A stretch of 37,315 bases of DNA from NCBI GenBank assembly GCA_014802705.1, contig JAAVBR010000007.1, positions 1 to 37,315 of the forward strand, in the 5' to 3' direction. This DNA is from a bacterium. Lineage in GTDB: Bacteria; Pseudomonadota; Alphaproteobacteria; Rs-D84. Position numbers and translations under genes: made by a program. Shown here in pieces: positions 2,426 to 37,315 of this stretch. Under the pieces are notes generated by a model. That model did no database searches. It was not told where the DNA came from and saw nothing but the letters and a program-made list of their open reading frames with translations. The number at the start of each line of letters is the position of its first letter. Positions within the stretch are counted from its first letter, which is position 1.

Positions 2426-2791
2426 ATGAAAAATAACGAATTCACCTTGGCGGTGGCAAATCTGGCGGCGGCGGCCATGGCGGCCAATCCCGGCCTGTCC
2501 ATGGCGGATGCGGTGCGCGACGCCACGGAAAACCTGCGCGGGGCCTCCATCAGCCCCCAAAAAATCAAGGATTCGGTCAAACCCGATAAAATCCAGTGTC
2601 TGGAAGACGGCACCTGGCACGTGATGCTGCGCCGCTATATCCGGCGAAAGTTTAATATGAGTCCGGAACAGTACAAGGCCAAATGGGGATTGCCGGATGA
2701 TTATCCGATGGTGGCGCCGACGTATGCGGCGCGCCGGTCAAAAATCGCAAAAAAAACAGGATTGGGTAAAAATGGCAAAAGAAATTCGTAA
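2426..2791 (+). CDS. mucR: Ros/MucR family transcriptional regulator with degenerate zinc-ligand set
   Basis: The C-terminal half IQCLEDG...SPEQYKAKWGLPDDYPMVAPTYAARRSKIAKKTGLG matches the Ros/MucR signature (..YR.KWGLP.DYPMVAP.YA..RS.LAK..GLG). The internal ATG at 2426 is preferred over the 2048 ORF start, which is antisense to rarA. Confidence 0.85.
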   Translation: MKNNEFTLAVANLAAAAMAANPGLSMADAVRDATENLRGASISPQKIKDSVKPDKIQCLEDGTWHVMLRRYIRRKFNMSPEQYKAKWGLPDDYPMVAPTYAARRSKIAKKTGLGKNGKRNS

Positions 2792-4433
2792 CAATAAATA
2801 CCTATCCGGCCTGTATCAGTTCTTGGGATGGGCGATCAAATACGCGACATGGGACAATCCCATTGTGCGTGGCACAGACGCGGCGATCAAGGCGGTTTCG
2901 GCGACGCCCGCGATGCCCCAGGAAACATGGTTTGAACGTCATTCCACGGTTGCGGCGCGTGTGGTTTGGTGGTGCGCATTGTGCGGCGCCCTGTTGAAAG
3001 AGGGGACCATTGATGTCGCCCCCGTCGTGGATGCCATGGGCCATTGGATCACACAGAATAATTTTGAAGATCTGAAATTAAATCCCAAAAATTCCGAACG
3101 CTGGGCGGATGCGGTGGTGGGGATTCATCCCTATGTCTTGGCGCATATTATTTCCAGCGAAGGGTTTATTGAAAAGGCCTATGACGACAATGGGGGCAAT
3201 GGGACGTTGACCCTGGGCAGTGGATTTACCATCAACGATAAAATACATCGTGATTTTGCAAAAAAAATATTGGGCCGCCATGTGGGAAACGGGGCGTCTA
3301 TTACCGTTGCGGAAAATCGGATCTTGGTATCCGAATGGTTAAAACAAAAAATCTATCCCCAAATTCAACAGAATCTGACCCGATCCATCGACAGTCGTCT
3401 GTTTGTGATTTTGGCGGTGGCGGCGTATAACAAAGGGTCCAATACCTATGCCCCTGGCAACAGCGGCCATCCCGTGATCCAGGCCATCAATGACGGCAAA
3501 AGTCCCGACGAAATTGCCGCGACGTATGTGCGGGCCTTTTCGGGAATCCAGGGCACCAAGTGGGGGGGGCTGCCCAACAAATTTGGTTTAAGCGCCCTGT
3601 ATTATCAGGGGGCGGTGCAAGACACAACGATTTTGAATGCCATTGCCGAGGCACCCTATACCCTGGAAAAACATATTCGCCAGAATAATAATCGGCTGGT
3701 GACCTATGACAACAAAACGAATGCGGCGCGGGCCAATGGATTGTATAATCCGGGTAATATTGATTCACTGATGCTGTTGACCAAATACCGCAAGACCCAG
3801 GGAACCGCTCAAGAACCGGTGAAAAATTATTTAACCCCGCATCAATGTGATGTGATTCAACAGGGAAAATTGGCGGCCCATGTGGCGGATTTCCAGGATT
3901 CGATTGTTCATGTCACCCCCCAGAAAATGGATGCGTCGGATGAGTTAAATGCCGCCGGCGAAGAATTTTATTTTGATAAAAAGTATGCCCAGGCGGTTGA
4001 AAAATTCAAAGCGGCCATCCAGAAAAAACCGCAGAATTACATCGCATACAGCAATTTGGCCATTTCATATTACAAAATGGATAAATACGCCGATGGGTTA
4101 AAGGTGGTCCAGGATCTGATCAAATCATCGCACTTTGCGGGCATGCCGGACGACATTCGGGGCTATACCTATTATAATGTGGCGTTGTGTCGGATGGCCC
4201 TGGGGGACAATGCCCAGGATACCACGGCCGCCGCGGAACATTACACATTGGCCCGGGCAAATTTAAAGTTGGCCGAAAAATTCAGCGGCTGTGTGCACGA
4301 AGACATGCGCAAAACGTTGGATGCCAAAATAAATCCGGCGCCGCATATGCGCGCCGCCGCGGCCAAGGTCAAAAGCCAATCGGCCCCCCAAAAAGGCCGG
4401 GCGCCCGTGCGTCCCAAACAAGAGGGCAGATAA
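2772..4433 (+). CDS. membrane-anchored GH24 (T4-lysozyme-like) muramidase domain protein with C-terminal TPR repeats, paralog A
   Basis: SSEGFIEKAYDDNGGNGTLTLGSGFT reproduces the Glu-8/9-Asp-5-Thr spacing of the T4 lysozyme catalytic triad. A hydrophobic segment VVWWCALCGALL is present. The C-terminus is TPR-like (FYFDKKYAQAVEKFKAAIQKKPQNYIAYSNLAISYYKMDKY). The start at 2772 is chosen over 2697. Confidence 0.7.
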   Translation: MAKEIRNNKYLSGLYQFLGWAIKYATWDNPIVRGTDAAIKAVSATPAMPQETWFERHSTVAARVVWWCALCGALLKEGTIDVAPVVDAMGHWITQNNFEDLKLNPKNSERWADAVVGIHPYVLAHIISSEGFIEKAYDDNGGNGTLTLGSGFTINDKIHRDFAKKILGRHVGNGASITVAENRILVSEWLKQKIYPQIQQNLTRSIDSRLFVILAVAAYNKGSNTYAPGNSGHPVIQAINDGKSPDEIAATYVRAFSGIQGTKWGGLPNKFGLSALYYQGAVQDTTILNAIAEAPYTLEKHIRQNNNRLVTYDNKTNAARANGLYNPGNIDSLMLLTKYRKTQGTAQEPVKNYLTPHQCDVIQQGKLAAHVADFQDSIVHVTPQKMDASDELNAAGEEFYFDKKYAQAVEKFKAAIQKKPQNYIAYSNLAISYYKMDKYADGLKVVQDLIKSSHFAGMPDDIRGYTYYNVALCRMALGDNAQDTTAAAEHYTLARANLKLAEKFSGCVHEDMRKTLDAKINPAPHMRAAAAKVKSQSAPQKGRAPVRPKQEGR

Positions 4434-6206
4434 ATGGCACAACGGTTTCAAAAAATTGTCGGCGCGCCCCAGCATACATTTGAACGGGCCCGCAAAAAAA
4501 TAACGGCATGGCATCCCCGCACACCCGTGGGGCATGTGGGGCGCCTGGTCGGGATTTCGGGGACGGGGATATTTGAATTTTTATTGTGGGCGGTCAAATA
4601 CGCCACATTGGATAATCCGATGTTGCGCGATATGGAAGACAAGATACGAAATCTGCAAACCAATTCCATTTGGTGGCGTCATCCCAATTTGTCGGCGCAT
4701 GTGTTGTGGTGGTTTATGTTGGGGGGCGTGGTTTTGTCCGCGTGGCCCCAAAGCGATGAAATGGAAGAGGGAACAGAACCCTTTTATGAGACACACAACA
4801 GCGCCACCGATGTCCCGCCGGTCGCGGAAAAAAAGTTTGCGGGTTTTTGTCTGAATCCCCTGGATCAACAGGCGTGGCGCGCCGATGTGATGGGCGTGCA
4901 TCCCTATGTCTTGGCGCATATTATTTCCAGCGAGGGCTTTATCGAACGGGCCTATGACGACAATGCAGGCAATGGAACGTTGACCCTGGGCAGTGGTTTT
5001 ACCATCGATCACGCGGCGCATCGGGCGTTTGCCCAGCAAATATTGGGCCGCCGGATTGGCAATTGGGCGCGGATTGATGTGGATGAAAACCGTGTGTTGG
5101 TGTCCGAATGGCTGCGCCAGGTGATTTATCCCAATATTCAACAGAATTTAACCCGACCGGTGGATGGGCGTTTGTTTGTGATTTTGGCGGTGGCGGCATA
5201 CAACAAAGGGCACAATATCTATGCCCCCGGCAACAGCGGCTATCCCGTTATCCAGGCCATCAATGCCGGCAAAAGTGTGGATGAAATAGCCAATGCCTAT
5301 GTGCGGGCCTTTGCGGGGCCGCGCGGCACGCGTTGGCCGGGATTGATCAATAAATATGGCGTCTGTGCGTTGTATTACAAGGGTAACATTTCCGATGGGG
5401 CCATCTTGGCCTCGGTGGCAGAGGCACCTTATCGTCTGGAAAAGCATATTCGCCAGAACCGGGGACGGTTGGTCACCTATGACGGGTCGGGCGAAGATGC
5501 CCGCCCCAATGGTGTCATTGATCATAAAAAAATGGATTCCCTGTTGATGATGGTGCCAAAGCACAAGACCAAGGGTACCCTGCAGGATACGGTCGGGACG
5601 TATTTGAACGCGGCACAATGTGATGCGATTTCGCGTGGCGTTTTGGCCGGGGCGGATGCCTGTTTCCATGATTTTATGCCCAAAAAAACGGCGGAAAGAT
5701 TAAGTCGATCGGACGCGTTAAACATTACGGGCGAAGAATTGTATTTTGATAAAAAATACAGCGCCGCCATCAAAAAATTCCAGGCGGCCCTGGATAAAGA
5801 TCCGCGCAATTATATCGCGTACGCCAATATGGTGATTTGTTATTGCAAAATGGGGCGGCCCGAACGGGGATTGGCCGTGATGCAAAACCTGATGGGGACC
5901 GGTCTGTATACCGACATGCCCGGCGATATGCGCGGCGCCATGTATTACGGGGCGGCCCTGTGTCGCGTGGCATTGGGCGACGCCGCCACACGGGATGACG
6001 TGCGCCGCACGCATTATACCGCGGCATTGGAAAATTTAAAGTTGGCCGAAAAATTTAGCGGTGACCCGCACGAGGGGATCCAAAAAGCCGTCCAGGCAAA
6101 GATAAATCCGGCGCCGCAGATGCGCGCCGCCGCGGCCAAGGTCAAAAGTCAGACGCGTGTTCCCACCGCCAAAGGGAACGTGGTGACCAAAAATGAGGGC
6201 AGATAA
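4434..6206 (+). CDS. membrane-anchored GH24 lysozyme-like / TPR protein, paralog B
   Basis: Same architecture as 2772-4433 (SSEGFIERAYDDNAGNGTLTLGSGFT, a TPR tail, and an identical ...NLKLAEKFSG...AKINPAP.MRAAAAKVKSQ end). The ATG directly abuts the upstream TAA. Confidence 0.7.
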   Translation: MAQRFQKIVGAPQHTFERARKKITAWHPRTPVGHVGRLVGISGTGIFEFLLWAVKYATLDNPMLRDMEDKIRNLQTNSIWWRHPNLSAHVLWWFMLGGVVLSAWPQSDEMEEGTEPFYETHNSATDVPPVAEKKFAGFCLNPLDQQAWRADVMGVHPYVLAHIISSEGFIERAYDDNAGNGTLTLGSGFTIDHAAHRAFAQQILGRRIGNWARIDVDENRVLVSEWLRQVIYPNIQQNLTRPVDGRLFVILAVAAYNKGHNIYAPGNSGYPVIQAINAGKSVDEIANAYVRAFAGPRGTRWPGLINKYGVCALYYKGNISDGAILASVAEAPYRLEKHIRQNRGRLVTYDGSGEDARPNGVIDHKKMDSLLMMVPKHKTKGTLQDTVGTYLNAAQCDAISRGVLAGADACFHDFMPKKTAERLSRSDALNITGEELYFDKKYSAAIKKFQAALDKDPRNYIAYANMVICYCKMGRPERGLAVMQNLMGTGLYTDMPGDMRGAMYYGAALCRVALGDAATRDDVRRTHYTAALENLKLAEKFSGDPHEGIQKAVQAKINPAPQMRAAAAKVKSQTRVPTAKGNVVTKNEGR

Positions 6207-6207
6207 C

Positions 6208-8163
6208 ATGCATATTTATATTGATGATCAGGATAAGCGTTGGAACAAATATAAAATCGATTTTGATGGGGTGGCCCGTCGGGCGGCGGATGTCGCCGGC
6301 GCCGCGCCTGAGGCAGAAATATCGATTATCCTGACCGATGATGCGCACATTCATGAACTGAACCGACAATATCGTCAGATTGATCGGCCGACCAATGTGC
6401 TGTCCTTTGAATTGGGGGATCCCCAATTGTTGGGCGACATTTATATATCCTTGGACACGGTCCAGCGCGAGGCCCATGATTTAAATATCCCTGTGGCCGA
6501 TCATACGGCGCATATGGTGGTGCACGGGGTTTTGCACCTGATGGGGTATGATCATATTGATGATGCGGATGCGGTGCGGATGGAAAAATTGGAAACCCAA
6601 ATTTTGGGGGATATGGGAATTAAAAATCCCTATGCGTCGGACGGGGATGTCGTGGCCAGGCGGGGAATGCGCCCATGGGGATGCGCGGCGCTCTATGCAC
6701 TCTGTGGGGCGGTGGCCGTGTTGGGGTTTGCGCCCATGGTTTTTTGGTGGGCGACATGTATCGGCATCGGCGGGGCATATTACCTCTGTGTTCGTGACGG
6801 GGACGCGCCCATTGGATTGGGACGCGGATGGATGCGGGCGTTTCCCTTTGGGGCAATGTACGCCGTGGGGATGTTTTGGTGGATGCTGAATTCGATTTTT
6901 GTGGTACCGGAATTGATGCATCAATTTGCGATTTGGACATTGCCCGCATTGATGGGGATCGCGTTGGCGGGGGGGATTATTTTCGCCGCGCCGTTTGCCG
7001 TTGTGTCTTCTATGCGCCGGAATCCGGCATATACACCGATTTATTTTGCAACCGCCTGGACGTTGGTGTTGTGGTTGCGGGAATGGGTGCTGACCGGATT
7101 TCCATGGAATCCGTTGGCGAACATTACGTTGAATATGCCGTTGATCGCCAATTCCATGTCGCTGTGGGGGGCATTGGGATTGACGTTTGTGGTGGCAGGC
7201 TTGATCGCATCGGGGGTGGAATGGATCCGCACGCGGCGCCGTGATGTCGTGACCACATTTTTGATGTTTGTGGTGGTATTGGCCGCCGGCGCGGTTGCAG
7301 GATATATCAATATACTGCGTGCGGCCGTGGATACCGATAAACCGGCCCCTGTGATTCGTATTGTACAGCCCGCCATGTCCCAATCGCAAAAGATGACGCG
7401 CGATGCGGCGGTGGAAAATCTGAAACGTCTGATGGAACTGGGGTGGGGCGATGATGCCGGGGCGCATCCCGATTTGATTGTGTATCCGGAAACCACCTAT
7501 CCGGCGGTGATGGAGGCTGATGATGATATGCCCATGGCGCGGGCCTTGGGCAAACCGGTGGTGATGGGGACGTTATCCTGGGATGGGCGGCATGTCTATA
7601 ATTCCATGGCGGTGGCGGGAAATGACGGGACGTTAAATCACCTGTATCACAAATCGCATTTGGTGCCGTTTGGGGAATACGCGCCGCTGGGGGGACTGAT
7701 GCCGGCGCCGGGGAATTTAACCCCCGGCACAGGGCCGGCCCTGATCACGCTGGATCTGGGGGGGCGTGCCTTTACCTTTGCGCCCGCCATTTGTTACGAG
7801 ATTATTTTTACAGATTCCCTGGTGCGTTCCGCGGCGCCCATCGACGCGGTGATCAATATGACCAATGACACATGGTTTGGCCGCACCCCCGGCACGTACC
7901 AGCACTTGGATATGGTGCGGCGCTATGCGATTGAATCAGGGCTGCCCATTGTGCGGGCCAATTATTCGGGGATCAGTGCCCTGGTCAACAGTGCGGGTGC
8001 CGTCACGGCCCGGATTCCCATCGGGGCCACAGGGATCTTGGACGGCACGGTCGGGGGCGCGCACCAAACGCCATATCGATGGATCGGGCGTGACGGATGG
8101 ATGATTCTTATTTTGATCTTTGCCCTGGGGGCCGTGGCCGTGCGCCGGCGGTTCGGAAAATAA
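6208..8163 (+). CDS. lnt: single ORF joining YbeY (rRNA maturation endoribonuclease) to apolipoprotein N-acyltransferase Lnt
   Basis: Residues about 1-150 carry the YbeY motif HGVLHLMGYDH and end ...GIKNPY. From M at 6667 the ORF is Lnt-like: multi-TM N-terminus, then a CN-hydrolase domain (DLIVYPET, HKSHLVPFGEY, ICYE). No stop separates the two parts. GAGGG lies upstream of ATG 6208, and the alternative start 6193 overlaps the upstream gene. Confidence 0.8.
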   Translation: MHIYIDDQDKRWNKYKIDFDGVARRAADVAGAAPEAEISIILTDDAHIHELNRQYRQIDRPTNVLSFELGDPQLLGDIYISLDTVQREAHDLNIPVADHTAHMVVHGVLHLMGYDHIDDADAVRMEKLETQILGDMGIKNPYASDGDVVARRGMRPWGCAALYALCGAVAVLGFAPMVFWWATCIGIGGAYYLCVRDGDAPIGLGRGWMRAFPFGAMYAVGMFWWMLNSIFVVPELMHQFAIWTLPALMGIALAGGIIFAAPFAVVSSMRRNPAYTPIYFATAWTLVLWLREWVLTGFPWNPLANITLNMPLIANSMSLWGALGLTFVVAGLIASGVEWIRTRRRDVVTTFLMFVVVLAAGAVAGYINILRAAVDTDKPAPVIRIVQPAMSQSQKMTRDAAVENLKRLMELGWGDDAGAHPDLIVYPETTYPAVMEADDDMPMARALGKPVVMGTLSWDGRHVYNSMAVAGNDGTLNHLYHKSHLVPFGEYAPLGGLMPAPGNLTPGTGPALITLDLGGRAFTFAPAICYEIIFTDSLVRSAAPIDAVINMTNDTWFGRTPGTYQHLDMVRRYAIESGLPIVRANYSGISALVNSAGAVTARIPIGATGILDGTVGGAHQTPYRWIGRDGWMILILIFALGAVAVRRRFGK

Positions 8164-8239: not shown

Positions 8240-8313
8240 TGGAGGCCTGGGTCGGAATCGAACCGGCATACAAGGATTTGCAGTCCTCTGCATAACCACT
8301 CTGCCACCAGGCC
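8240..8313 (-). tRNA. tRNA-Cys (anticodon GCA), CCA encoded
   Basis: The reverse complement reads GGCCTGGTGGCAGAGTGGTTATGCAGAGGACTGCAAATCCTTGTATGCCGGTTCGATTCCGACCCAGGCCTCCA. It has a 7-bp acceptor stem, anticodon loop CT-GCA-AA and T-loop GGTTCGATTCC. Confidence 0.92.
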
Positions 8314-12985: not shown

Positions 12986-13013
12986 AAAAATCCCGGGGAT
13001 TCCCGGGATTTTT
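12986..13013 (+). terminator. rho-independent terminator after the permease gene (also the left end of cassette copy 1)
   Basis: AATCCCGG-GGATTC-CCGGGATT followed by TTT and flanked by an A-run. Confidence 0.7.
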
Positions 13014-13017
13014 CATG

Positions 13018-13046
13018 TTGCGCGAAACGGCGCAATCGGTTATAAT
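13018..13046 (+). promoter_or_regulatory. sigma70-type promoter of cassette copy 1
   Basis: TTGCGC, 17-nt spacer, TATAAT. The -35 is part of the inverted repeat TTGCGC-GAAACG-GCGCAA. Predicted TSS is near 13053. Confidence 0.6.
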
Positions 13047-13155
13047 CCGTGGGGTAGAGGGCGAAAATACTATGCCTAATCCAAAGGGACGTTTGCATAC
13101 GACAATAATCCCAAAATAAAAATCCCCAATTTCCGCACTTTTTCCTCCTGATTTT

Positions 13156-13647
13156 ATGCCTAATCCAAACGTCGGTTTGAATCCGGCCGTGGCCGCCGAA
13201 TGTCCAGCAAAGGTATGCGTGTCAGGCGAGCTGGGAATAATAGACGATTTGGATGGTACCGTTGATTTAGATAGCAAGGCGGCCAATTGCGCAACCACCA
13301 AGATGACATGTTACGGAGAGTCTGCTGAGGGATTTACTGGGGAGTCGACTGGTTTGGAATCGTGTGTGACATGTCTGGATGGATATGTCAAAGAAGAACG
13401 GACAGTTCCGTTTCAAGATCAACGGGGCAACGAATGTACGGTCACATATTACACCTGTGTCAAAGAGACAAAATGCCCCCAGGGACAATATAAACAGGGG
13501 ACGACCTGTGTGGCCTGTCCGTCATCGGGAACGACCGATGCAGCCGGCATGACGGCCGTGACGCAATGTTATCTTGCCGCCGGGACAGCCTTTTCCGATG
13601 CCAGCGGGGCAGGCGTTTACGCCGCCAAATGTCCCTGGGTGAATTAA
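13156..13647 (+). CDS. Cys-rich protein family member 1 (MPNPNVGL N-terminus, ephrin-receptor-like CxxCPxG C-terminal module)
   Basis: The C-terminus KCPQGQYKQGTTCVACPSSGTTDAAGMTAVTQCYLAAGTAFSDASGAGVYAAKCPWVN matches the GCC2/GCC3 (Ephrin_rec_like) pattern. No signal peptide and no SD are seen. Confidence 0.7.
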   Translation: MPNPNVGLNPAVAAECPAKVCVSGELGIIDDLDGTVDLDSKAANCATTKMTCYGESAEGFTGESTGLESCVTCLDGYVKEERTVPFQDQRGNECTVTYYTCVKETKCPQGQYKQGTTCVACPSSGTTDAAGMTAVTQCYLAAGTAFSDASGAGVYAAKCPWVN

Positions 13648-16699: not shown

Positions 16700-16927
16700 A
16701 TGAGAGCAGGATTTTGGGAAATTGTTTTAATTGTCGTGTTGGTCTTGATTTTGTTCGGCCATAACAAGATTCCGGGTTTGATGAAAAATCTGGCCAATGG
16801 GATCAATGTGTTTAAGAAAGAAATCAAGGACACCAAAGATGGCGCCCGTGCGGCCGTGCAAAAGGGGGCCGTGGCCCACGAAAAACGGATGGCCGCCAAA
16901 AAGAAAGCCGCCGCGCCCAAGAAATAA
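16700..16927 (+). CDS. tatA: twin-arginine translocase subunit TatA/E
   Basis: N-terminal TM segment plus amphipathic helix FWEIVLIVVLVLILFGHNKIPGLMKNLANGINVFKKE. 75 aa. Confidence 0.85.
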   Translation: MRAGFWEIVLIVVLVLILFGHNKIPGLMKNLANGINVFKKEIKDTKDGARAAVQKGAVAHEKRMAAKKKAAAPKK

Positions 16928-16954
16928 AAAATCCCGGGGATCACCGGGATTTTT
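16928..16954 (+). terminator. rho-independent terminator after tatA (also the left end of cassette copy 2)
   Basis: AATCCCGG-GGATCA-CCGGGATT followed by TTT. Confidence 0.7.
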
Positions 16955-16958
16955 CATG

Positions 16959-16987
16959 TTGCACGAAACGGCGCAATCGGTTATAAT
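16959..16987 (+). promoter_or_regulatory. sigma70-type promoter of cassette copy 2
   Basis: TTGCAC, 17-nt spacer, TATAAT. Confidence 0.6.
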
Positions 16988-17097
16988 CCGTGGGGTAGAG
17001 GGCGAAAATACTATGCCTAATCCAAAGGGACGTTTGCATACGACAAAATTCCCAACAAAAAAATCCCCAATTTCCGCATATTTTAACCCCTCGTTTT

Positions 17098-17781
17098 ATG
17101 CCTAATCCAAACGTCGGTTTGTTTTCGGCACCGACATATGCCGCCACAGATGCTTTGACGGATTATCCGAACATCTACACGTGTCGGACTTGGCAATTTT
17201 TTTGGTCTAAATTGTCTGAGGCTTTACACACCTATGATACCACCAGTGGAAATGTAGACAATATGTCCACGACAATTTTTAGTACAATCTTTAATCAGGT
17301 CAGAGAGGATATTTATAAAAATTATACCCAATATACATTTGAGGGGTGGTCGTTGTCGCAGCCAGCTGTCAGCTATCTTTATGCGAAATTAAGTACCGGC
17401 GAAATTGCCAAGGAATTGTACGACACCTATGGGCCAAAAGGAATCTGGTCTTATCCCTACTGCCCAGATCCGGTTTATAAAGATCCGCATTTTAAATCAA
17501 CGGCCACCTTTTGTGGTTGTGATGCCATGATAAAGACCGCGATGTTGGATGGGGAACCGTTGAGCCAACGAGCCTTGCAATGTATATGCAAAGCGGGATA
17601 TTATGGCGTTTTAAACCTGACCGATGCGACCACAACAGGATGTTTGGCCTGTCCGGCGTCTGGGACCAGTGTGGCCGGTCAGAACACAACGATCGCGGAT
17701 TGTTATATTGATCCGGGGGATAGCCATACGGATGCCACGGGGACATGGGAACCCATCAATAAATGTTATTATTCGCAATAG
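17098..17781 (+). CDS. Cys-rich protein family member 2 (MPNPNVGL N-terminus, ephrin-receptor-like C-terminal module)
   Basis: MPNPNVGLFSA... leads to ...CICKAGYYGVLNLTDATTTGCLACPASGTSVAGQNTTIADCYIDPGDSHTDATGTWEPINKCYYSQ. The gene is visibly AT-richer than its neighbours. Confidence 0.7.
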   Translation: MPNPNVGLFSAPTYAATDALTDYPNIYTCRTWQFFWSKLSEALHTYDTTSGNVDNMSTTIFSTIFNQVREDIYKNYTQYTFEGWSLSQPAVSYLYAKLSTGEIAKELYDTYGPKGIWSYPYCPDPVYKDPHFKSTATFCGCDAMIKTAMLDGEPLSQRALQCICKAGYYGVLNLTDATTTGCLACPASGTSVAGQNTTIADCYIDPGDSHTDATGTWEPINKCYYSQ

Positions 17782-24210: not shown

Positions 24211-24239
24211 TGGATAAAATCAGCGGAACCTGATATAAT
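24211..24239 (+). promoter_or_regulatory. sigma70-type promoter of cassette copy 3
   Basis: TGGATA, 17-nt spacer, TATAAT with an extended -10 TG (TGATATAAT). Confidence 0.55.
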
Positions 24240-24381
24240 CCGTGGGCTAGAGGGCGAAAATACTATGCCTAATCCAAAGGGACGTTTGCATACAACAAAA
24301 TTCCCAAAATAAAAATCCCCAATTTCCGCATCTTTTCCCCCTGATTTTATGCCTAATCCAAACGTCGGTTTGTTTTCGGCA
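24217..24381 (+). repeat. conserved promoter/leader/mini-ORF cassette, copy 3
   Basis: From TATAAT (24234) to 33 nt inside the ORF it is near-identical to copies 1 and 2. Mini-ORF 24265-24312 encodes MPNPKGRLHTTKFPK. Confidence 0.9.
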
Positions 24382-25018
24382 TCTGGCGCCCACGCCCAGA
24401 TGATTTGTGGGGATTATACCCCAAGTGGTACAAATTCGGGCGAGGGATTTTTGGGGAATAATGAGGCTGTGTATGTGATCGATTCGGAGCTCATTGATTT
24501 AAACAAGTACCGGGTAGCCGCCCATTGTCTGGAATGTGATAAAATTGAGGATATAAATAACGGTTACAAAAGAGCCACAAATTGCACGTACAAGGAAGCA
24601 TTGTGCCCAGGGGAATATTTTCTTTTTAGCCAGGCCGATCAGAAAACGTGTTATCCGTGCGGCACTTATGAATCTAGTTTAACTTATCGGGATTACACAA
24701 ACTTTCATAAGGAAATAGGAAATAATTGGCTAAGTTCGGCGACCAGTTGTGATTATTGTCTGTCTGGCTATTACCGCAGTGGGGCGCCCTGTGTTCCATG
24801 TCCTACGACCCAAAATATACCCGTCGAATCAGTAACAGTGGTGTCGGTGGCGTCTTGGGGGGGACGGTGGCGTTGAAACGTGTTTTCTGGCGATTTCAAC
24901 AGATAATCTGGAAAACGTGACCGGCAATGATGAATCGGGTACCTTTGTTCGATCGTATGAACGACATGAAATCGGTGATCTTTTGGGGATGGAAACTGTT
25001 ATCTGTCCCTATCAATAA
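24349..25018 (+). pseudogene. Cys-rich protein family member 3, interrupted by a frameshift at a G7 tract (pseudogene, phase-variable, or recoded)
   Basis: Frame 0 (24349-24876) ends shortly after G7 (24857-24863). The +1 frame continues ...DGGVETCFLAISTDNLENVTGNDESGTF...VICPYQ* to 25018, supplying the family's conserved C-terminal C-[YF]...D..G...C.Y end. Confidence 0.65.
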
Positions 25019-25101: not shown

Positions 25102-25395
25102 ATGATGCCAAAATGCGATTTTAAAGAGGATTTAGAGGTTGTCTTGTTGGACAGTCCCGTTGGAAATTGTTCCAAATGTATTTTCCACGAATGTTTTCAG
25201 ATCTGTGATAACTATATGATCTGTCGGGATGATAACGGCATGGCGGTCAATTGGAAAATGCGGCGCGGGGGGCAATGTGATGCCATTTTGGCGGCGCAAT
25301 ATGCCTGTAATCGTGGTGTGGATACACAGAATGTATGTCGTCAAAAGATCGCGGCGGCGATTCGTGCCCGCTGTGACCAAGAATATTCGGCCTAA
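25102..25395 (+). CDS. small Cys-rich hypothetical protein, paralog A (97 aa)
   Basis: GNCSKCIFHECFQICDNYMICRDDNGMAVNW...VCRQKIAAAI. It has its own promoter and SD and lies in an AT-rich stretch. Confidence 0.55.
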   Translation: MMPKCDFKEDLEVVLLDSPVGNCSKCIFHECFQICDNYMICRDDNGMAVNWKMRRGGQCDAILAAQYACNRGVDTQNVCRQKIAAAIRARCDQEYSA

Positions 25396-25399
25396 TGAT

Positions 25400-25681
25400 A
25401 TGAAACAGAAATTTGATACGTACGATTTTTATATGCAATTAAAGCCGGTGCCCATCGCGGCGACGGGGGATTGCATGTTTTGTGTGTTTCGGAATTTGCC
25501 CGGCTATTGCGAACAAATGGTGTGTCGCGACGATAATTATCGTCATGTTTATTGGACATTTCGTCATGCAACCGCGTGGGAGGCATTAGATATTTTTAAC
25601 AACGCGGCGATTCGCAAAATTGATATTCCGGCCGCCTGTCGGCGCAAAATCGCCCAGGCATACGGCGTGCATAACAAATAA
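25400..25681 (+). CDS. small Cys-rich hypothetical protein, paralog B (93 aa)
   Basis: GDCMFCVFRNLPGYCEQMVCRDDNYRHVYW...ACRRKIAQAY aligns with paralog A. The internal ATG at 25400 of ORF 25229-25681 is used. Confidence 0.5.
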   Translation: MKQKFDTYDFYMQLKPVPIAATGDCMFCVFRNLPGYCEQMVCRDDNYRHVYWTFRHATAWEALDIFNNAAIRKIDIPAACRRKIAQAYGVHNK

Positions 25682-34761: not shown

Positions 34762-36294
34762 GTGAAGAAATTCTTACAATTTTTTTCCGGTGTTTTGGGA
34801 ACGCTGTTTTTGGCGGCCGGGTGTGATTTACAGCCGCGAATTGTATCCCTGCCGGATTCGGTGGGGGACTTTATTTCCACGCGGTACCCAGCGTTGTTGG
34901 CAGACCCCGAGACTGAGGCAGAAATCTATAACTCGGCCGCGACCGACTATGGCGTGTATGCGTCGCCGGAACTCTATGGATCGGTGGAATCAGACGATTA
35001 TTTATTGTACGCCAGCGTTGATGACTATGTCCTGGGGCCGCAAGACGTGGCGGATGCCAACAATGCCCCTGTCGCGGCGGGGGAAAATGATGGGGCGGCC
35101 CCGGCGGTGTCCGCACCGGATGATGGACCGGCGCCTGTGGCCGACACACCCGGGGATCAGACGCCCGCAATGGATGAATATTTAATGGTGCCGATGTATG
35201 GCGGGACGCCCGATGCAGCGGCGGCTGCGCCGGCGCCGGATACAATCACGGTGGCGCGGGGCGACACCCTGTATTCTTTGGCCAAAAAGTATGGCACCAC
35301 GGTGGATGAATTGGCCGCCCGGAATCATTTGGCGGCCCCCTATGCCCTGCGCGTGGGCCAGAAATTGACCCTGGGGCCCGCCGTGGCGGATGCCCCGGCA
35401 TCGGTCGCGTCGGCACACACCCCGGCGCCATCGGTCAAGACAGAAACGCCGGCCGATCAAATCACCGTGCCGGCCCGCCGCACGGCAACCACCACCATGG
35501 TGGAATTGCAAGATGTGATCGTGGGACCGGGCGATACGCTGTATTCCTTGTCGCGACGCTATGCGACGCCGGTCAATGATTTGGCGGTGATGAATAAATT
35601 GTCGGCGCCGTTCACGTTGGCGGTGGGTCAAAAATTGCGCGTGCCGAAATTGGCCGGGGTGCCCGTGCACCCCGTGGTGACGCCGGTCAAATCGGATCCT
35701 GCGCCCGGGACCAAAGATGGCAAATCAGCGCCGGCGGCCCCGGCCAAAGATAGCAAGACGCCCGTGACCAAGCCCGCCGTGGCCCCGGCAAAATCAGACG
35801 CCAAACCGTCAAAGCCCGCCGTGCCTGCCGCGTCCGCGGCCCCCGCAAAACCGGCCGCGGCGCCAGCCAAAATTTCGTCCAATCCGGCCAAGAAATTACC
35901 GGCCCTGTCGGCGCGGTCGTCGTCCAAATTTGCGTGGCCGGTCCGCGGAACGATTTTGTCCCAGTTTGGGGCGAAATCCGGCGGCCTGTTTAATGATGGG
36001 ATCAATATCGCCGCGGCCCGCGGTACCGCGGTTCGGGCGGCGGAAAACGGTGTCGTGGCCTATGCCGGGAACGAGGTTAAGGGCATGGGCAACCTGGTCA
36101 TTGTGCAACACAGCGGCGGGTGGATGACGGTCTATGCCCATATGGATTCGATGGGGGTGCGCCGTGGCACGCGGGTCAATGTTGGCCAGAAGATCGGCGC
36201 CGTCGGCCAAACGGGCAAGGTCACCAAACCCCAATTGCACTTTGAAATCCGCAAGGGGACCAAAGCCTATAACCCCACGTCATATTTGAAATAA
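34762..36294 (+). CDS. LysM x2 / degenerate LytM (M23) lipoprotein, NlpD/DipM-like
   Basis: Lipobox LAAGC. Two LysM repeats (GDTLYSLAKKYG..., GDTLYSLSRRYA...). The M23 domain has its metal ligands replaced (NDGINI for HxGxD, PQLHFE for PHLHFE). GTG start. Confidence 0.85.
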   Translation: MKKFLQFFSGVLGTLFLAAGCDLQPRIVSLPDSVGDFISTRYPALLADPETEAEIYNSAATDYGVYASPELYGSVESDDYLLYASVDDYVLGPQDVADANNAPVAAGENDGAAPAVSAPDDGPAPVADTPGDQTPAMDEYLMVPMYGGTPDAAAAAPAPDTITVARGDTLYSLAKKYGTTVDELAARNHLAAPYALRVGQKLTLGPAVADAPASVASAHTPAPSVKTETPADQITVPARRTATTTMVELQDVIVGPGDTLYSLSRRYATPVNDLAVMNKLSAPFTLAVGQKLRVPKLAGVPVHPVVTPVKSDPAPGTKDGKSAPAAPAKDSKTPVTKPAVAPAKSDAKPSKPAVPAASAAPAKPAAAPAKISSNPAKKLPALSARSSSKFAWPVRGTILSQFGAKSGGLFNDGINIAAARGTAVRAAENGVVAYAGNEVKGMGNLVIVQHSGGWMTVYAHMDSMGVRRGTRVNVGQKIGAVGQTGKVTKPQLHFEIRKGTKAYNPTSYLK

Positions 36295-36327
36295 AAAAAC
36301 ACGCTATATGCCGGATTTTGTGCATAC
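36295..36327 (+). repeat. direct repeat, copy A (left flank of the GNAT gene)
   Basis: AAAAACACGCTATATGCCGGATTTTGTGCATAC compared with copy B AAAAACACGCTATGCGCCGGATTTTGTGCACAT. Confidence 0.7.
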
Positions 36328-36352: not shown

Positions 36353-36769
36353 ATGGAAATTAAAATTCGTCGTGCACAGGACGCAGATGTTAAACAGGTT
36401 ATGGCGTTGTTGCATACGACGAATCTTATAGATAAAGAAACGCCCTATAACAGTGCAGAATATTTTATGCAATCATGTCGTGATGGTGTGTTTTTGGTGG
36501 CGACATATGATGACAAAATCATAGGCATGATTCATGGCGAAATGTTGATGGGGCGTGGTTGTGTGGTGTGGTATTTTGTCGTTGATGAAAAAATGCGTGG
36601 GCATGGCATTGGTCGACAATTGTTTGGTGCCTTTGAAACCGAATGTAAATCACGTGGCGCGTCATGGTTATTTGGATCCAGTGACATCAATGCCAAGACA
36701 ATGAATTTCTATCGAAAGAACAATTGTGAATTTGATGATGCCTATATGGAATTTTGCAAAAATATTTAA
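36353..36769 (+). CDS. GNAT family N-acetyltransferase
   Basis: VVDEKMRGHGIGRQLF (the R/Q-x-x-G-x-G/A acetyl-CoA loop). 138 aa, AT-rich. Confidence 0.8.
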   Translation: MEIKIRRAQDADVKQVMALLHTTNLIDKETPYNSAEYFMQSCRDGVFLVATYDDKIIGMIHGEMLMGRGCVVWYFVVDEKMRGHGIGRQLFGAFETECKSRGASWLFGSSDINAKTMNFYRKNNCEFDDAYMEFCKNI

Positions 36770-36775
36770 TTTTAT

Positions 36776-36815
36776 AAAAAACACGCTATGCGCCGGATTT
36801 TGTGCACATAGCGTG
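36776..36815. repeat. direct repeat, copy B, which is also a bidirectional terminator hairpin
   Basis: A 9-bp stem CACGCTATG / CATAGCGTG around CGCCGGATTTTGTGCA, between convergent genes. Confidence 0.7.
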
Positions 36816-36821
36816 ATTTGA

Positions 36822-37315
36822 TCAGGGTTGATAATAGCATGTTTGACTGGCATAGGTGCCGGTTGAATCTGTCTGGATGCCAGTTAAAACATAACAGTCG
36901 GTAATGGATTGACTGTTATAACCTGAACCAGCAGTTCTGGTTGCGTCCTCTGGGCACTTTACACACGATGAGCCGTTTTTATAATAACCTAGGTCGCAAT
37001 AATTGCATGAGCTGTTGGTGTGTAGAGAATCTAAATATGTTACTGCGCCGTTGGGGTCACTCCCAATATATCCTTTGGGACAAAAAACGCATCCATAAGG
37101 ATTATAAGAGGAATTGTACATGCATTTCAGACTGCTAAAATCAATGGTTCCTTGTGAAAATGTAAATAAAGGCGCCTGGGAATAATCGACGGGGGGAACG
37201 CATTCAATACAAATATGACTAAACCCCTGTGACATCATCCATCCTAATTGAGAGGTTAGATTCGTAATGGATACAAAATTTCCGCCCAAGTAACTAAAAT
37301 CTTGTGGGACTTCGC
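36822..37315 (-). CDS. Cys-rich protein family member 4 (5' end outside window)
   Basis: The frame is open to the window edge beyond the listed TTG at 37289. The C-terminus CNYCDLGYYKNGSSCVKCPEDATRTAGSGYNSQSITDCYVLTGIQTDSTGTYASQTCYYQP matches members 1-3. Confidence 0.7.
   Translation of the reverse strand, partial: EVPQDFSYLGGNFVSITNLTSQLGWMMSQGFSHICIECVPPVDYSQAPLFTFSQGTIDFSSLKCMYNSSYNPYGCVFCPKGYIGSDPNGAVTYLDSLHTNSSCNYCDLGYYKNGSSCVKCPEDATRTAGSGYNSQSITDCYVLTGIQTDSTGTYASQTCYYQP

Follow-up and report, generated by a model that had tools for sequence, protein, structure and literature searches.

In the cwpV-type switch of Clostridioides difficile, the tyrosine recombinase RecV inverts a segment of ~150-200 bp in the 5' untranslated region, and the coding sequence is left unchanged. 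The classical Din enzymes (Hin, Gin) invert much longer segments (~1-4 kb), depend on an enhancer bound by Fis, and control genes for tail fibres or flagellin. Here we describe a family of genes for small Cys-rich proteins, and a predicted invertible element (inverton) at the start of each, in a 37,315-nucleotide stretch of an alphaproteobacterial genome (GTDB lineage Rs-D84; assembly GCA_014802705.1, contig JAAVBR010000007.1, NCBI locus tags HDR63_). This whole stretch, which we call the window, is nearly the entire metagenome contig k119_62244 (ENA ERZ27267591).

Other described systems come closer in one respect or another. In Bacteroides fragilis, according to the passage of PMC4747536 that cites Coyne et al. 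(2003), Mpi inverts 13 dispersed regions, 7 of which are capsular polysaccharide promoters. Sites of the Din family have a 12-2-12 layout, TTC....AAACC NN GGTTT....GAA, as in gix, TTCCTGTAAACC GA GGTTTTGGATAA (Table 3 of PMC3241671). Surveys of gene-overlapping invertons (PMC9881135; bioRxiv 10.1101/2023.03.11.532203) report mainly shufflon-like domain exchange, recoding and premature stops; signal peptides or an exchange of translation starts are mentioned in neither, and a full-text literature search combining inverton, signal peptide and intragenic gave no match. As these surveys are silent on the point, we class an Mpi/Din-type inverton that would toggle the ribosome-binding site, start codon and signal peptide as a new variant.

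We propose, with a probability of roughly 0.8, that each gene of the family carries an inverton straddling its start and that the assembled orientation is the OFF state of phase variation. A fixed TATAAT promoter would be followed after 25 nt by site A, and 84-85 bp further on by site B, which would lie inside the start of the open reading frame (ORF). In the OFF state, a C-rich stretch would take the place of the Shine-Dalgarno motif, and the gene would start at the ATG of the site itself, without a signal peptide. In the ON state, the 82-83 bp between the two centres would be inverted, and a ribosome-binding site, a start codon and a Sec signal peptide would join the gene in frame. The product would be a translatable pre-protein, its mature form being secreted and probably disulfide-bonded, with a Cys-rich C-terminus. 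The catalyst would be a 'master' serine DNA invertase of the Mpi family, encoded elsewhere in the genome and acting on many such sites, and the expression of each copy would be switched stochastically.

The proposed system resembles that of B. fragilis in its gut commensal host, in its many short invertible regions around the chromosome upstream of surface-related genes, and in a single conserved serine recombinase of the same equivalog (NF009949), found in related genomes. It differs in phylum, in the near-fixed length of the segment (82-83 bp), and in what the segment carries, which in the window is the ribosome-binding site, start and signal-peptide codons rather than a promoter, with one site inside the coding sequence; the enzyme is linked to the sites here by co-occurrence. 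The sites share with the Din family (Hin/hix, Gin/gix, Cin/cix, Pin/pix) the 12-2-12 layout with an inner AAAC(C)-NN-(G)GTTT, and a central dinucleotide common to partner sites in inverted orientation (36/37 pairs). However, they are only ~85 bp apart, and the outer half-site is CTA... rather than TTC.... As in cwpV, the element stands between a fixed promoter and a gene, and in relatives one orientation carries a hairpin and T-run (L003, L032, and the OFF state of L063 and the like), whereas the window copies have no terminator in the OFF orientation. As in partial intergenic invertons (Milman et al. 2023; Chanin et al.), the coding sequence holds one repeat and the upstream region the other, and the flip rewrites part of the protein, but here it would toggle translatability and export together.

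Paired sites and a cassette on the opposite strand

The original prediction had described a multigene family of four members that are alike only at an N-terminal MPNPNVGL and in a C-terminal module, that lack any recognisable signal peptide, and that are under a shared control element. All four ORFs (m1 to m4, Table 1) were confirmed, and the family with its shared control element is real. The C-terminal module is common to the four, and MPNPNVGL opens the three complete members, m1, m2 and m3; the start of m4, and any switch that it has, are beyond the contig end. Pairwise BLASTP likeness was mostly limited to the module and the first 8 residues. The assembled ORFs have a best 10-residue Kyte-Doolittle mean of ~1.0 and no Lys or Arg within the first 5 residues, in agreement with the absence of a signal peptide. 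The genes had also been called AT-richer than the core genes. This was clearest at third codon positions, where the G+C fraction (GC3) was 0.43-0.51 in members against 0.63-0.70 in core genes, but it did not extend to m1 as a whole, whose overall GC (0.528) was not below that of its neighbours.

We observed that ~170 nt are near-identical in the three complete copies, from the TATAAT box through the first 24-33 nt of the ORF, third codon positions included. Past this leader, the m1, m2 and m3 sequences share nothing. The motif ATGCCTAATCCAAANNNNNGTTTG occurs in 6 exact copies in the window (0.03 expected by chance), and ATGCCTAATCCAAA is present twice per gene, 84-85 nt apart. The 34-bp recombination site can be written ATGCCTAATCCAAAC-NNNN-GTTTGGATTAGGCAT (12-2-12 consensus CTAATCCAAAC(C/G)-NN-(C/G)GTTTGGATTAG), and MPNPNVGL is its left half read as codons. 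The centres of sites A and B, 84-85 bp apart in m1, m2 and m3, are GA and TC; as these are reverse complements, the sites are inverted relative to each other. Site B overlaps the first 11 codons of the assembled ORF. The perfect -10 box is conserved in all three copies, and the m2 promoter, which lies outside the invertible segment, was missed by a consensus scan because its -35 matches only 3/6. In the assembled orientation, site A also opens a short ORF (MPNPKGRLHTT..., 15-30 codons) with GAGGG 11 nt upstream (13072-13119, 17013-17105 and 24265-24312).

The strand opposite to the gene was then read by inverting the segment in silico. In all three copies, this brought a Shine-Dalgarno motif, a start codon and MRKLGIF(I/L)LG(I/L)L(S/L)YA in frame with the gene, with AGGAGG, GAGGGG or AGGGGG falling 5-7 nt before the ATG or GTG. 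The flipped N-terminus of m1 is (GTG) RKLGIFILGLLSYANVGLNPAVAAEC; that of m2 is MRKLGIFLLGILSYANVGLFSAPTY, the cassette reading into NVGLFSAPTY...; and that of m3 is MRKLGIFILGILLYANV, in frame with ...GLFSASGA.... The reverse complement at m3 reads AGGGGGAAAAG ATG CGG AAA TTG GGG ATT TTT ATT TTG GGA ATT TTG TTG TAT GCA AAC GTC. A conserved box in the middle of the segment, AAAAATCCCnnATTTCnGC, encodes M-x-(Q)K-x-G-I-F when flipped. The cassette is intact in the three copies despite substitutions (I/L, S/L, ATG/GTG), and the predicted flipped-state junctions are ...CCAAAGGGACGTTTGGATTAGGCAT... and ...GTCGTATGCAAACGTCGGTTTG....

The flip also makes site A a perfect palindrome, puts Arg-Lys at positions 2-3, and lifts the best Kyte-Doolittle mean from ~1.0 to 2.5-3.1, comparable with natural family members (2.1-3.1). 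Judged by its residues and hydropathy, the flipped form has the features of a Sec signal, with an MRK n-region, LGIFILGILSYA as h-region and S-Y-A before N-V. A Shine-Dalgarno motif precedes 19 of the 29 other genes of the window but none of the MPNP ATGs, which are preceded by its complement (CCTCC, CCCCT, CCCCC), that is, by a C-rich stretch. Judged from the sequence, the flipped orientation alone would supply a Shine-Dalgarno motif, start codon and signal peptide, and a change of expression is predicted. The export route, left unexplained in the original prediction, would then be accounted for, the ribosome-binding site, start codon and Sec signal peptide sitting on the opposite strand between the inverted sites. 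That extracellular-type Cys-rich proteins should have an invariant N-terminus but lack an export signal seemed a paradox, which now becomes a concrete mechanism that can be tested. It also means that gene callers would mis-start such genes, at MPNP... or at an internal Met, when the switch is assembled OFF.

Table 1. Positions in the window of the family members and of the features of their predicted switches.
Feature	Position	Strand	Description
m1 ORF as assembled	13156-13647	+	163 aa; C-terminal module 13438-13644
m1 switch	13041..13189	+	-10 13041-13046; site A 13072-13105 (GA 13088-13089); site B 13156-13189 (TC 13172-13173)
m1 predicted invertible segment	13090-13171		
m1 hidden cassette (predicted)	within 13090-13171	-	perfect AGGAGG, then GTG 13138-13136, encodes (M)RKLGIFILGLLSYA
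m2 ORF as assembled (OFF reading)	17098-17781	+	227 aa; ATG without upstream Shine-Dalgarno motif
m2 promoter	16959..16987	+	TTGCAC, 17-nt spacer, TATAAT (-10 at 16982-16987); 25 nt 5' of site A
m2 site A (left)	17013..17046	+	ATGCCTAATCCAAAGG-GA-CGTTTGCATACGACAA; GA at 17029-17030
m2 site B (right)	17098..17131	+	ATGCCTAATCCAAACG-TC-GGTTTGTTTTCGGCAC; TC at 17114-17115; reads MPNPNVGLFSA as assembled
m2 predicted invertible segment	17031..17113	.	83 bp between central dinucleotides; conserved box AAAAATCCCCAATTTCCGCAT
m2 hidden 5' cassette (predicted)	17031..17092	-	GAGGGG 17087-17092, ATG 17079-17077, codons MRKLGIFLLGILSYA
m2 C-terminal Cys-rich module	17569..17778	+	Ephrin_rec_like/TNFR-like repeat, then family-specific tail ...DCYIDPGDSHTDATGTWEPINKCYYSQ
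m3 ORF	24349-25018	+	24349-24876, then +1 frame to ~25018 after G7 run; ends ...VICPYQ
m3 switch	24234..24382	+	-10 24234-24239; site A 24265-24298 (GA 24281-24282); site B 24349-24382 (TC 24365-24366)
m3 predicted invertible segment	24283-24364		
m3 hidden cassette (predicted)	within 24283-24364	-	AGGGGG, then ATG 24331-24329, encodes MRKLGIFILGILLYA
m4, 3' part of fourth member	36822 to beyond 37315	-	C-terminal module 36825-37022; 5' end cut by contig end

Inversion of the homologous element in relatives

A profile search with the C-terminal module gave a protein, P0135, that starts MQISGIFTKTKTTKLIGRLGVAKLGIFFMFST..., an ON-type N-terminus. Its 90%-identity cluster holds ON forms (P0135, P0158, P0159) on 7 contigs and OFF forms, called from the internal Met of MFSTICTG..., on at least 29 (P0156 on at least 23, P0157 on 5 and P0160 on 1). 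On the ON contigs L060 and L061, TATAAT is followed after 24 nt by ATGCCGAATTTAAACCAC/CGTTTGGATTCGGCAC ATTTCGGAGGAATGAAAT ATG CAG ATT TCT GGG ATT TTT ... AATCG/GTCGGTTGG, so that the N-terminus MQISGIF... comes after promoter, palindrome and GGAGG. In L063 and L065-L072, which are from other samples, the 83 bp between the slashes are exactly reverse-complemented. These contigs are collinear with L060 and L061 over ~2.5 kb at 93-96% identity, and blastn gave one collinear match of that length with a 97-nt minus-strand match inside it.

The crossover was confined to 4 nt, ACCG, within which the central AC lies. Each of the two alleles of the protein (ILAIG..MSGK and ILTIG..MPGK) was seen in both the ON and the OFF state, so the inversion has happened repeatedly. 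The gene-caller start at this locus differs by state (196 vs 224 aa). In the OFF state (L063 and the like), CCACC-loop-GGTGG beside TTTTTGTTTTT makes a terminator-like hairpin. P0161 (L062), a gene from a sibling sample, begins in a fixed ON-type form, MRIFKVFMAGLLLYANVDL / MRIFKVFMAGLLLYANVDLHAANA, and carries the window's predicted ON junction, GTATGCAAACGTCG; the flipped reading is therefore a real signal peptide in this lineage. Two further arrangements were seen among relatives. L064, whose flanks are 98-99% identical, lacks 34 bp including site B (1400-1500), which would lock the switch, and in L038 (100-200) the promoter runs straight into a single site, which has the look of an excision of the segment.

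It could still be that the switches of the window are dead even if those of relatives flip, a REP-/MITE-like (repetitive extragenic palindromic or miniature inverted-repeat transposable) palindromic element that landed on the 5' ends of old genes for secreted proteins, or was duplicated along with them, having destroyed the signal peptides of what are now decaying remnants. The genes are AT-rich and accessory, the window encodes no invertase, and the relatives include the deletion variants L064 and L038. Each of the m1, m2 and m3 proteins is the sole member of its cluster in the protein collection, where a search with m2 returned m2 alone. The m3 ORF is frameshifted, exactly at a run of seven G (24857-24863), the module resuming in the +1 frame, and at least this copy may be decaying. 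Possible readings of the run are a pseudogene lesion, an error in the assembly, or a tract prone to slippage, which would make a second layer of phase variation. However, all three copies keep both sites, the GA/TC centres, the Shine-Dalgarno motif, the start codon and, in spite of the substitutions, a cassette that is open, hydrophobic and in frame, and the outer half-sites of the P0135 locus, where the inversion is proven, are just as degenerate. We consider decay improbable, although it is the strongest of the alternatives.

The same element is found in other genomes. A scan with ATGCCTAATCCAAANNNNNGTTTG of one genome per GTDB species gave 48 stretches, with up to 10-12 from single metagenome-assembled genomes (MAGs). 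Chance matches aside (e.g. Salaquimonas, Haliea, Chitinophagales, Melioribacter), the motif-bearing relatives are MAGs from the gut that carry the label Alphaproteobacteria or 'Rickettsiales'. To judge by the isolate names, the hosts include mouse and roe deer, and names of the Pcl/Cc/Gx type are presumably those of termite-gut MAGs. A scan of Joint Genome Institute (JGI) metagenomes with the site pattern gave 7 stretches and no new orientations; 3 duplicate known loci (L054 = L024; L055 and L058 = L035), and 4 without the conserved leader were read as chance.

The flip test was run on all site pairs 78-92 bp apart in the retrieved loci. At ~20 diverged loci from at least 8 other MAGs, the flip yields GGAGG/GGGGGG, a 5-9 nt spacer, ATG and M-(S)-(Q/R)-K-(S/L)-G-I-F... 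in frame (e.g. MSQKSGIFKNKK..., MQKSGIFILGLL... and MSRNSGIFEIKK...). In one group it adds a Lys-rich n-region in front of a hydrophobic core that is already there (MSQKSGIFKNKKMPKINGGLLCTILGMIMAVAV...); for the group of the window it supplies both the n-region and the core. A codon-position test showed a synonymous excess in the hidden cassette of the JAITJD paralogue group (35/109, vs 12-14% in other frames), and it is in this group only that the test supports coding by the cassette.

Among 37 distinct site pairs, the spacing was 83-86 bp (23 at 85, 12 at 84). Central dinucleotides were complementary in 36 of these pairs, and flanking core positions agreed in 22-33. As strict identity is found only at the two central bases, a serine recombinase fits better than a tyrosine recombinase. 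The latter, with its 6-bp overlap, was rejected, core positions 15-16 often differing between partners while the central 2 bp do not.

The same pairs bear on a second alternative, that the leader is an RNA regulator, its two hairpins with complementary loops forming an attenuator or translational switch, with no DNA inversion here and with translation from MPNPNVGL. The leader is conserved at the nucleotide level across genomes, both sites can form hairpins, the A and B cores covary as complements, and in some relatives site A is a hairpin with a T-run, like an intrinsic terminator. But the pattern of strict complementarity at two bases, with looser flanks, fits a crossover dinucleotide better than a helix, and site B, being downstream of the terminator-like hairpin, cannot be an antiterminator. 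RNA pairing also leaves unexplained the in-frame Shine-Dalgarno motif, start and signal peptide on the opposite strand in many lineages, and the homologous element inverts at the DNA level. A riboswitch or other known RNA family was dropped as a candidate, as an Rfam scan of the window (E <= 1) gave only tRNA-Cys and chance matches and no family for the leader. We regard an RNA regulator as a little less probable again than decay.

As for what the element stands in front of, the motif in relatives opens ORFs with clear signal peptides (MPNPKGGLLCTILGMIMAVAVSVSTANG...) and ORFs without any (MPNPNVGLGA...). It also opens 9-codon ORFs (e.g. MPNPNGRLD*), which are an arm of a perfect 34-bp palindrome, ATGCCTAATCCAAAC-GGCC-GTTTGGATTAGGCAT, and occur with or without a gene downstream. 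Elements assembled in the flipped, ON-like orientation precede a GT1 glycosyltransferase (L013), an HNH gene (L007) and a secreted protein (L025). The L032 switch precedes a GT2 glycosyltransferase; in L003 and L032 a palindrome and then a T-run come before a gene that has a ribosome-binding site and a signal peptide of its own, and in L043 a sigma-70-type promoter lies between the sites. As the motif fronts glycosyltransferase and HNH genes as well as palindromic 9-codon ORFs, MPNPNVGL is not a protein signal and is best read as the half-site of a palindromic DNA element that contains an ATG. The N-terminus, then, is invariant in the three complete members as had been noted, but as a recombination half-site.

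That MPNPNVGL(F/N)(S/P)A should be a new N-terminal targeting signal for non-Sec export, e.g. by the MacAB-TolC-type pump upstream of m1, is very hard to believe: the N-terminus is invariant, the assembled ORFs lack a Sec signal and m1 directly follows an OEP/HlyD-like/ABC/MacB-FtsX operon, but the same 24-nt motif fronts the unrelated ORFs just listed, is conserved as DNA including third codon positions and has no Shine-Dalgarno motif before its ATG, relatives in the family carry ordinary Sec signal peptides, and m2, m3 and m4 adjoin no pump. Readings of MPNPNVGLGA... as a lipoprotein, type IV prepilin or double-glycine leader were rejected as well, there being no lipobox, no hydrophobic stretch and too short a leader.

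Candidate invertase and weight of the evidence

A regular-expression scan across all loci found one serine recombinase, in L022 (212 residues), with a homologue fragment at the edge of L047. A Resolvase domain is present in the L022 protein, and among solved structures a 193-residue 'DNA-invertase' (4m6f, 3uj3), which we take to be phage Mu Gin, comes closest to it. On NCBIfam NF009949, the master DNA invertase Mpi family of serine-type recombinases (cut-off 272), the recombinase scored 313 bits; by protein, the scores were 313.4 bits for P0163 and 311.9 bits for P0261, both of which come from related MAGs and not from the window. The 120 best-listed clusters were 77-100% identical to the L022 recombinase, and those with a named source were from Alphaproteobacteria or unclassified 'bacterium' MAGs. 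In GCA_014803525.1, site pairs lie 5-10 kb from the invertase gene. Co-occurrence and the type of site suggest that the Mpi-family invertase acts on these sites.

Several observations weigh against the proposed inverton. Inversion at m1, m2 and m3 is predicted from their own sequence, the direct evidence coming from the homologous element in relatives. Domain annotation and regular-expression scans for tyrosine and serine recombinases found no recombinase gene in the 37-kb window, and the enzyme is linked to the sites by co-occurrence only. The 82-83 bp segment is much shorter than those of classical Hin/Gin, and the synapsis of two such sites lacks an explanation. One of the three complete copies, m3, is frameshifted. 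There was no synonymous excess in the hidden cassette of the window/CAXHMP group (10/163 substitutions) in the codon-position test. Finally, when a collection of 5.8 billion proteins was searched with a profile built from the predicted ON N-terminus and the C-terminal module, no ON-form MRKLGIF... protein was among the 8 hits.

If the proposed switch is right, it would be a compact way of turning genes on and off by exchange of ribosome-binding site, start codon and signal peptide instead of promoter, and Mpi-type global control would reach beyond Bacteroidales into uncultured Alphaproteobacteria of the gut (samples from mouse, deer and termite). The near-fixed 82-83 bp raises the question of how a serine invertase synapses sites so close. 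We put forward a stronger form only tentatively, as something we would not yet bet on. These might be the shortest known serine-invertase switches, self-contained in 82-83 bp with centres ~8 helical turns apart and no remote enhancer, in which either strand would provide a 5' end for one gene (exported pre-protein vs decoy start lacking ribosome-binding site and signal peptide). One Mpi-family master invertase would run dozens of them genome-wide, switching a large set of TNFR/ephrin-like secreted proteins as well as surface glycosylation genes.

The switch also fronts glycosyltransferases and other secreted Cys-rich families, which points to variation of a cell-surface or secreted repertoire. 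We find the earlier suggestion of a variable surface or secreted repertoire a reasonable one, and would expect the ON products to be exported and disulfide-bonded and to act as a phase-variable repertoire in the gut.

The Cys-rich module and the surrounding genes

The C-terminal module has the pattern C-x-x-G-Y-Y...C-x-x-C-P...(I)T-x-C-Y...D-x-(T/S)-G...C-(Y/P)-(Y/W), and had been likened to the Ephrin_rec_like repeat (PF07699). Single sequences stayed below the cut-off of 23.1 bits (m1 16.3, m4 17.5-17.6; m2 and m3 no hit), and the 3 of 10 family members that matched PF07699 were all below it; TNFR_ELAPOR1_6th gave 23-24 bits against a cut-off of 33.2. At the profile level, however, hhalign, comparing the C-terminal 72 residues of the family (141 sequences) with 66 PF07699-type repeats, gave a probability of 95.4% (E = 1.8e-8, 44 columns). 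By this comparison the module is homologous to the Ephrin_rec_like repeat. The family profile also found long multi-repeat proteins (E = 1e-23 to 1e-11); 6 of the 7 that were checked scored 104-745 bits on PF07699 with 3-29 repeats, and the seventh was a Sushi-repeat protein.

Structure prediction pointed the same way, but without significant matches. With a 129-sequence alignment, AlphaFold modelled the m2 module at a predicted local distance difference test (pLDDT) score of 85 and a predicted template modelling (pTM) score of 0.68; with 10 sequences the pLDDT was 53 and the model unusable. The best Foldseek E-value was 0.43, none reaching E = 0.001. The top 50 matches were almost all Cys-rich domains of the TNFR superfamily or of the sweet-taste receptor (~40 residues, root-mean-square deviation ~3 A), the best folds being CD40, HVEM, OX40, RANK and the sweet-taste receptor. 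Among PDB sequences, the top hit of a profile search was EphA4, at only E = 0.12. The module shares C-x-x-G-Y-Y...C-x-x-C-P...T...C with these domains, and differs in its C-terminal tail, Y-I-P-x-G-T-x-x-x-D-x-T-G-x-Y-x-Y-T-x-x-C-Y-Y-S-N. Its first two-thirds are an Ephrin_rec_like/TNFR-type repeat, and its last ~25 residues are a family-specific tail.

The term 'eukaryote-type' turned out to be overstated. A profile of 10 members, searched against 1.84 billion representatives, found 1286 proteins at E <= 0.001 (183 at E <= 1e-10), so that the module defines at least that many clusters at 50% identity. Most are small, nearly all have Sec signal peptides, and, in a library that carries no taxonomy, the family members of traced origin are bacterial. 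Nearly all of the best 150 matches were of 85-260 residues, with an MKK...-type Sec signal peptide and the module at the extreme C-terminus (...ITDCYIPSGTxxSDxTGxYxYTxNCYYSN); unlike in PF07699 proteins, the module is single and ends a small Sec-signal protein. With at least 1286 clusters and no Pfam model passed, this is a large unnamed set of small secreted TNFR/ephrin-receptor-like proteins.

Some members of the family stand alone (~90 aa) as the second gene of two-gene operons (L050 2634-2990; L051 2632-2988). The first gene encodes a small secreted Cys-rich protein (...CCCPNG...GYY...CYCKM) unrelated to the module. A conserved structured leader with a terminator precedes two module-family genes (L050 2501-2593; L062 337-425); these leaders scored 41 and 34 bits on Rfam sRNA-Xcc1 (RF02221, cut-off 53), and may be another control element, for non-invertible copies.

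The genes around the family are ordinary Gram-negative chromosomal genes. They include MgsA, the TolC/HlyD/MacB pump, a class II aminoacyl-tRNA synthetase (threonyl-type SAD domain), GltX, TatA, TatC, SufS, SufE, a penicillin-binding protein, RecJ, LolA and an M23 peptidase. A single 656-aa ORF (6193-8163) fuses a YbeY endoribonuclease domain with the Lnt domains LNT_N and CN_hydrolase; the source gene caller gives a single 651-aa product, which is either an unusual fusion or two genes read through. The adjacent TPR-repeat paralogues at 2697-4433 and 4434-6206 (578 and 590 aa) share DNA blocks 72-89% identical at a constant 1773-nt offset, which indicates a tandem duplication. A tRNA-Cys (GCA) gene lies between the Lnt-like and TolC-like genes (8240-8313, minus strand).

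Near-identical G+C-rich hairpins, AAAAATCCCGGGGAT..CCGGGATTTTT, stand just 5' of the m1 and m2 promoters (12986-13013 and 16927-16954); they resemble bidirectional terminators and may have been duplicated along with the switch. An AT-rich region 3' of m3 (25102-25681, GC 0.46) has two small overlapping ORFs of 97 and 150 aa, both Cys-rich, with the common motifs CRDDN... and ...CR(Q/R)KIA(A/Q)A... and no Pfam match, which may be a further small accessory family. Beside m4, a 31-nt direct repeat (94% identical, 36294-36324 and 36776-36806) brackets an AT-rich GNAT acetyltransferase gene (36353-36769, GC 0.39) that resembles an inserted cassette.

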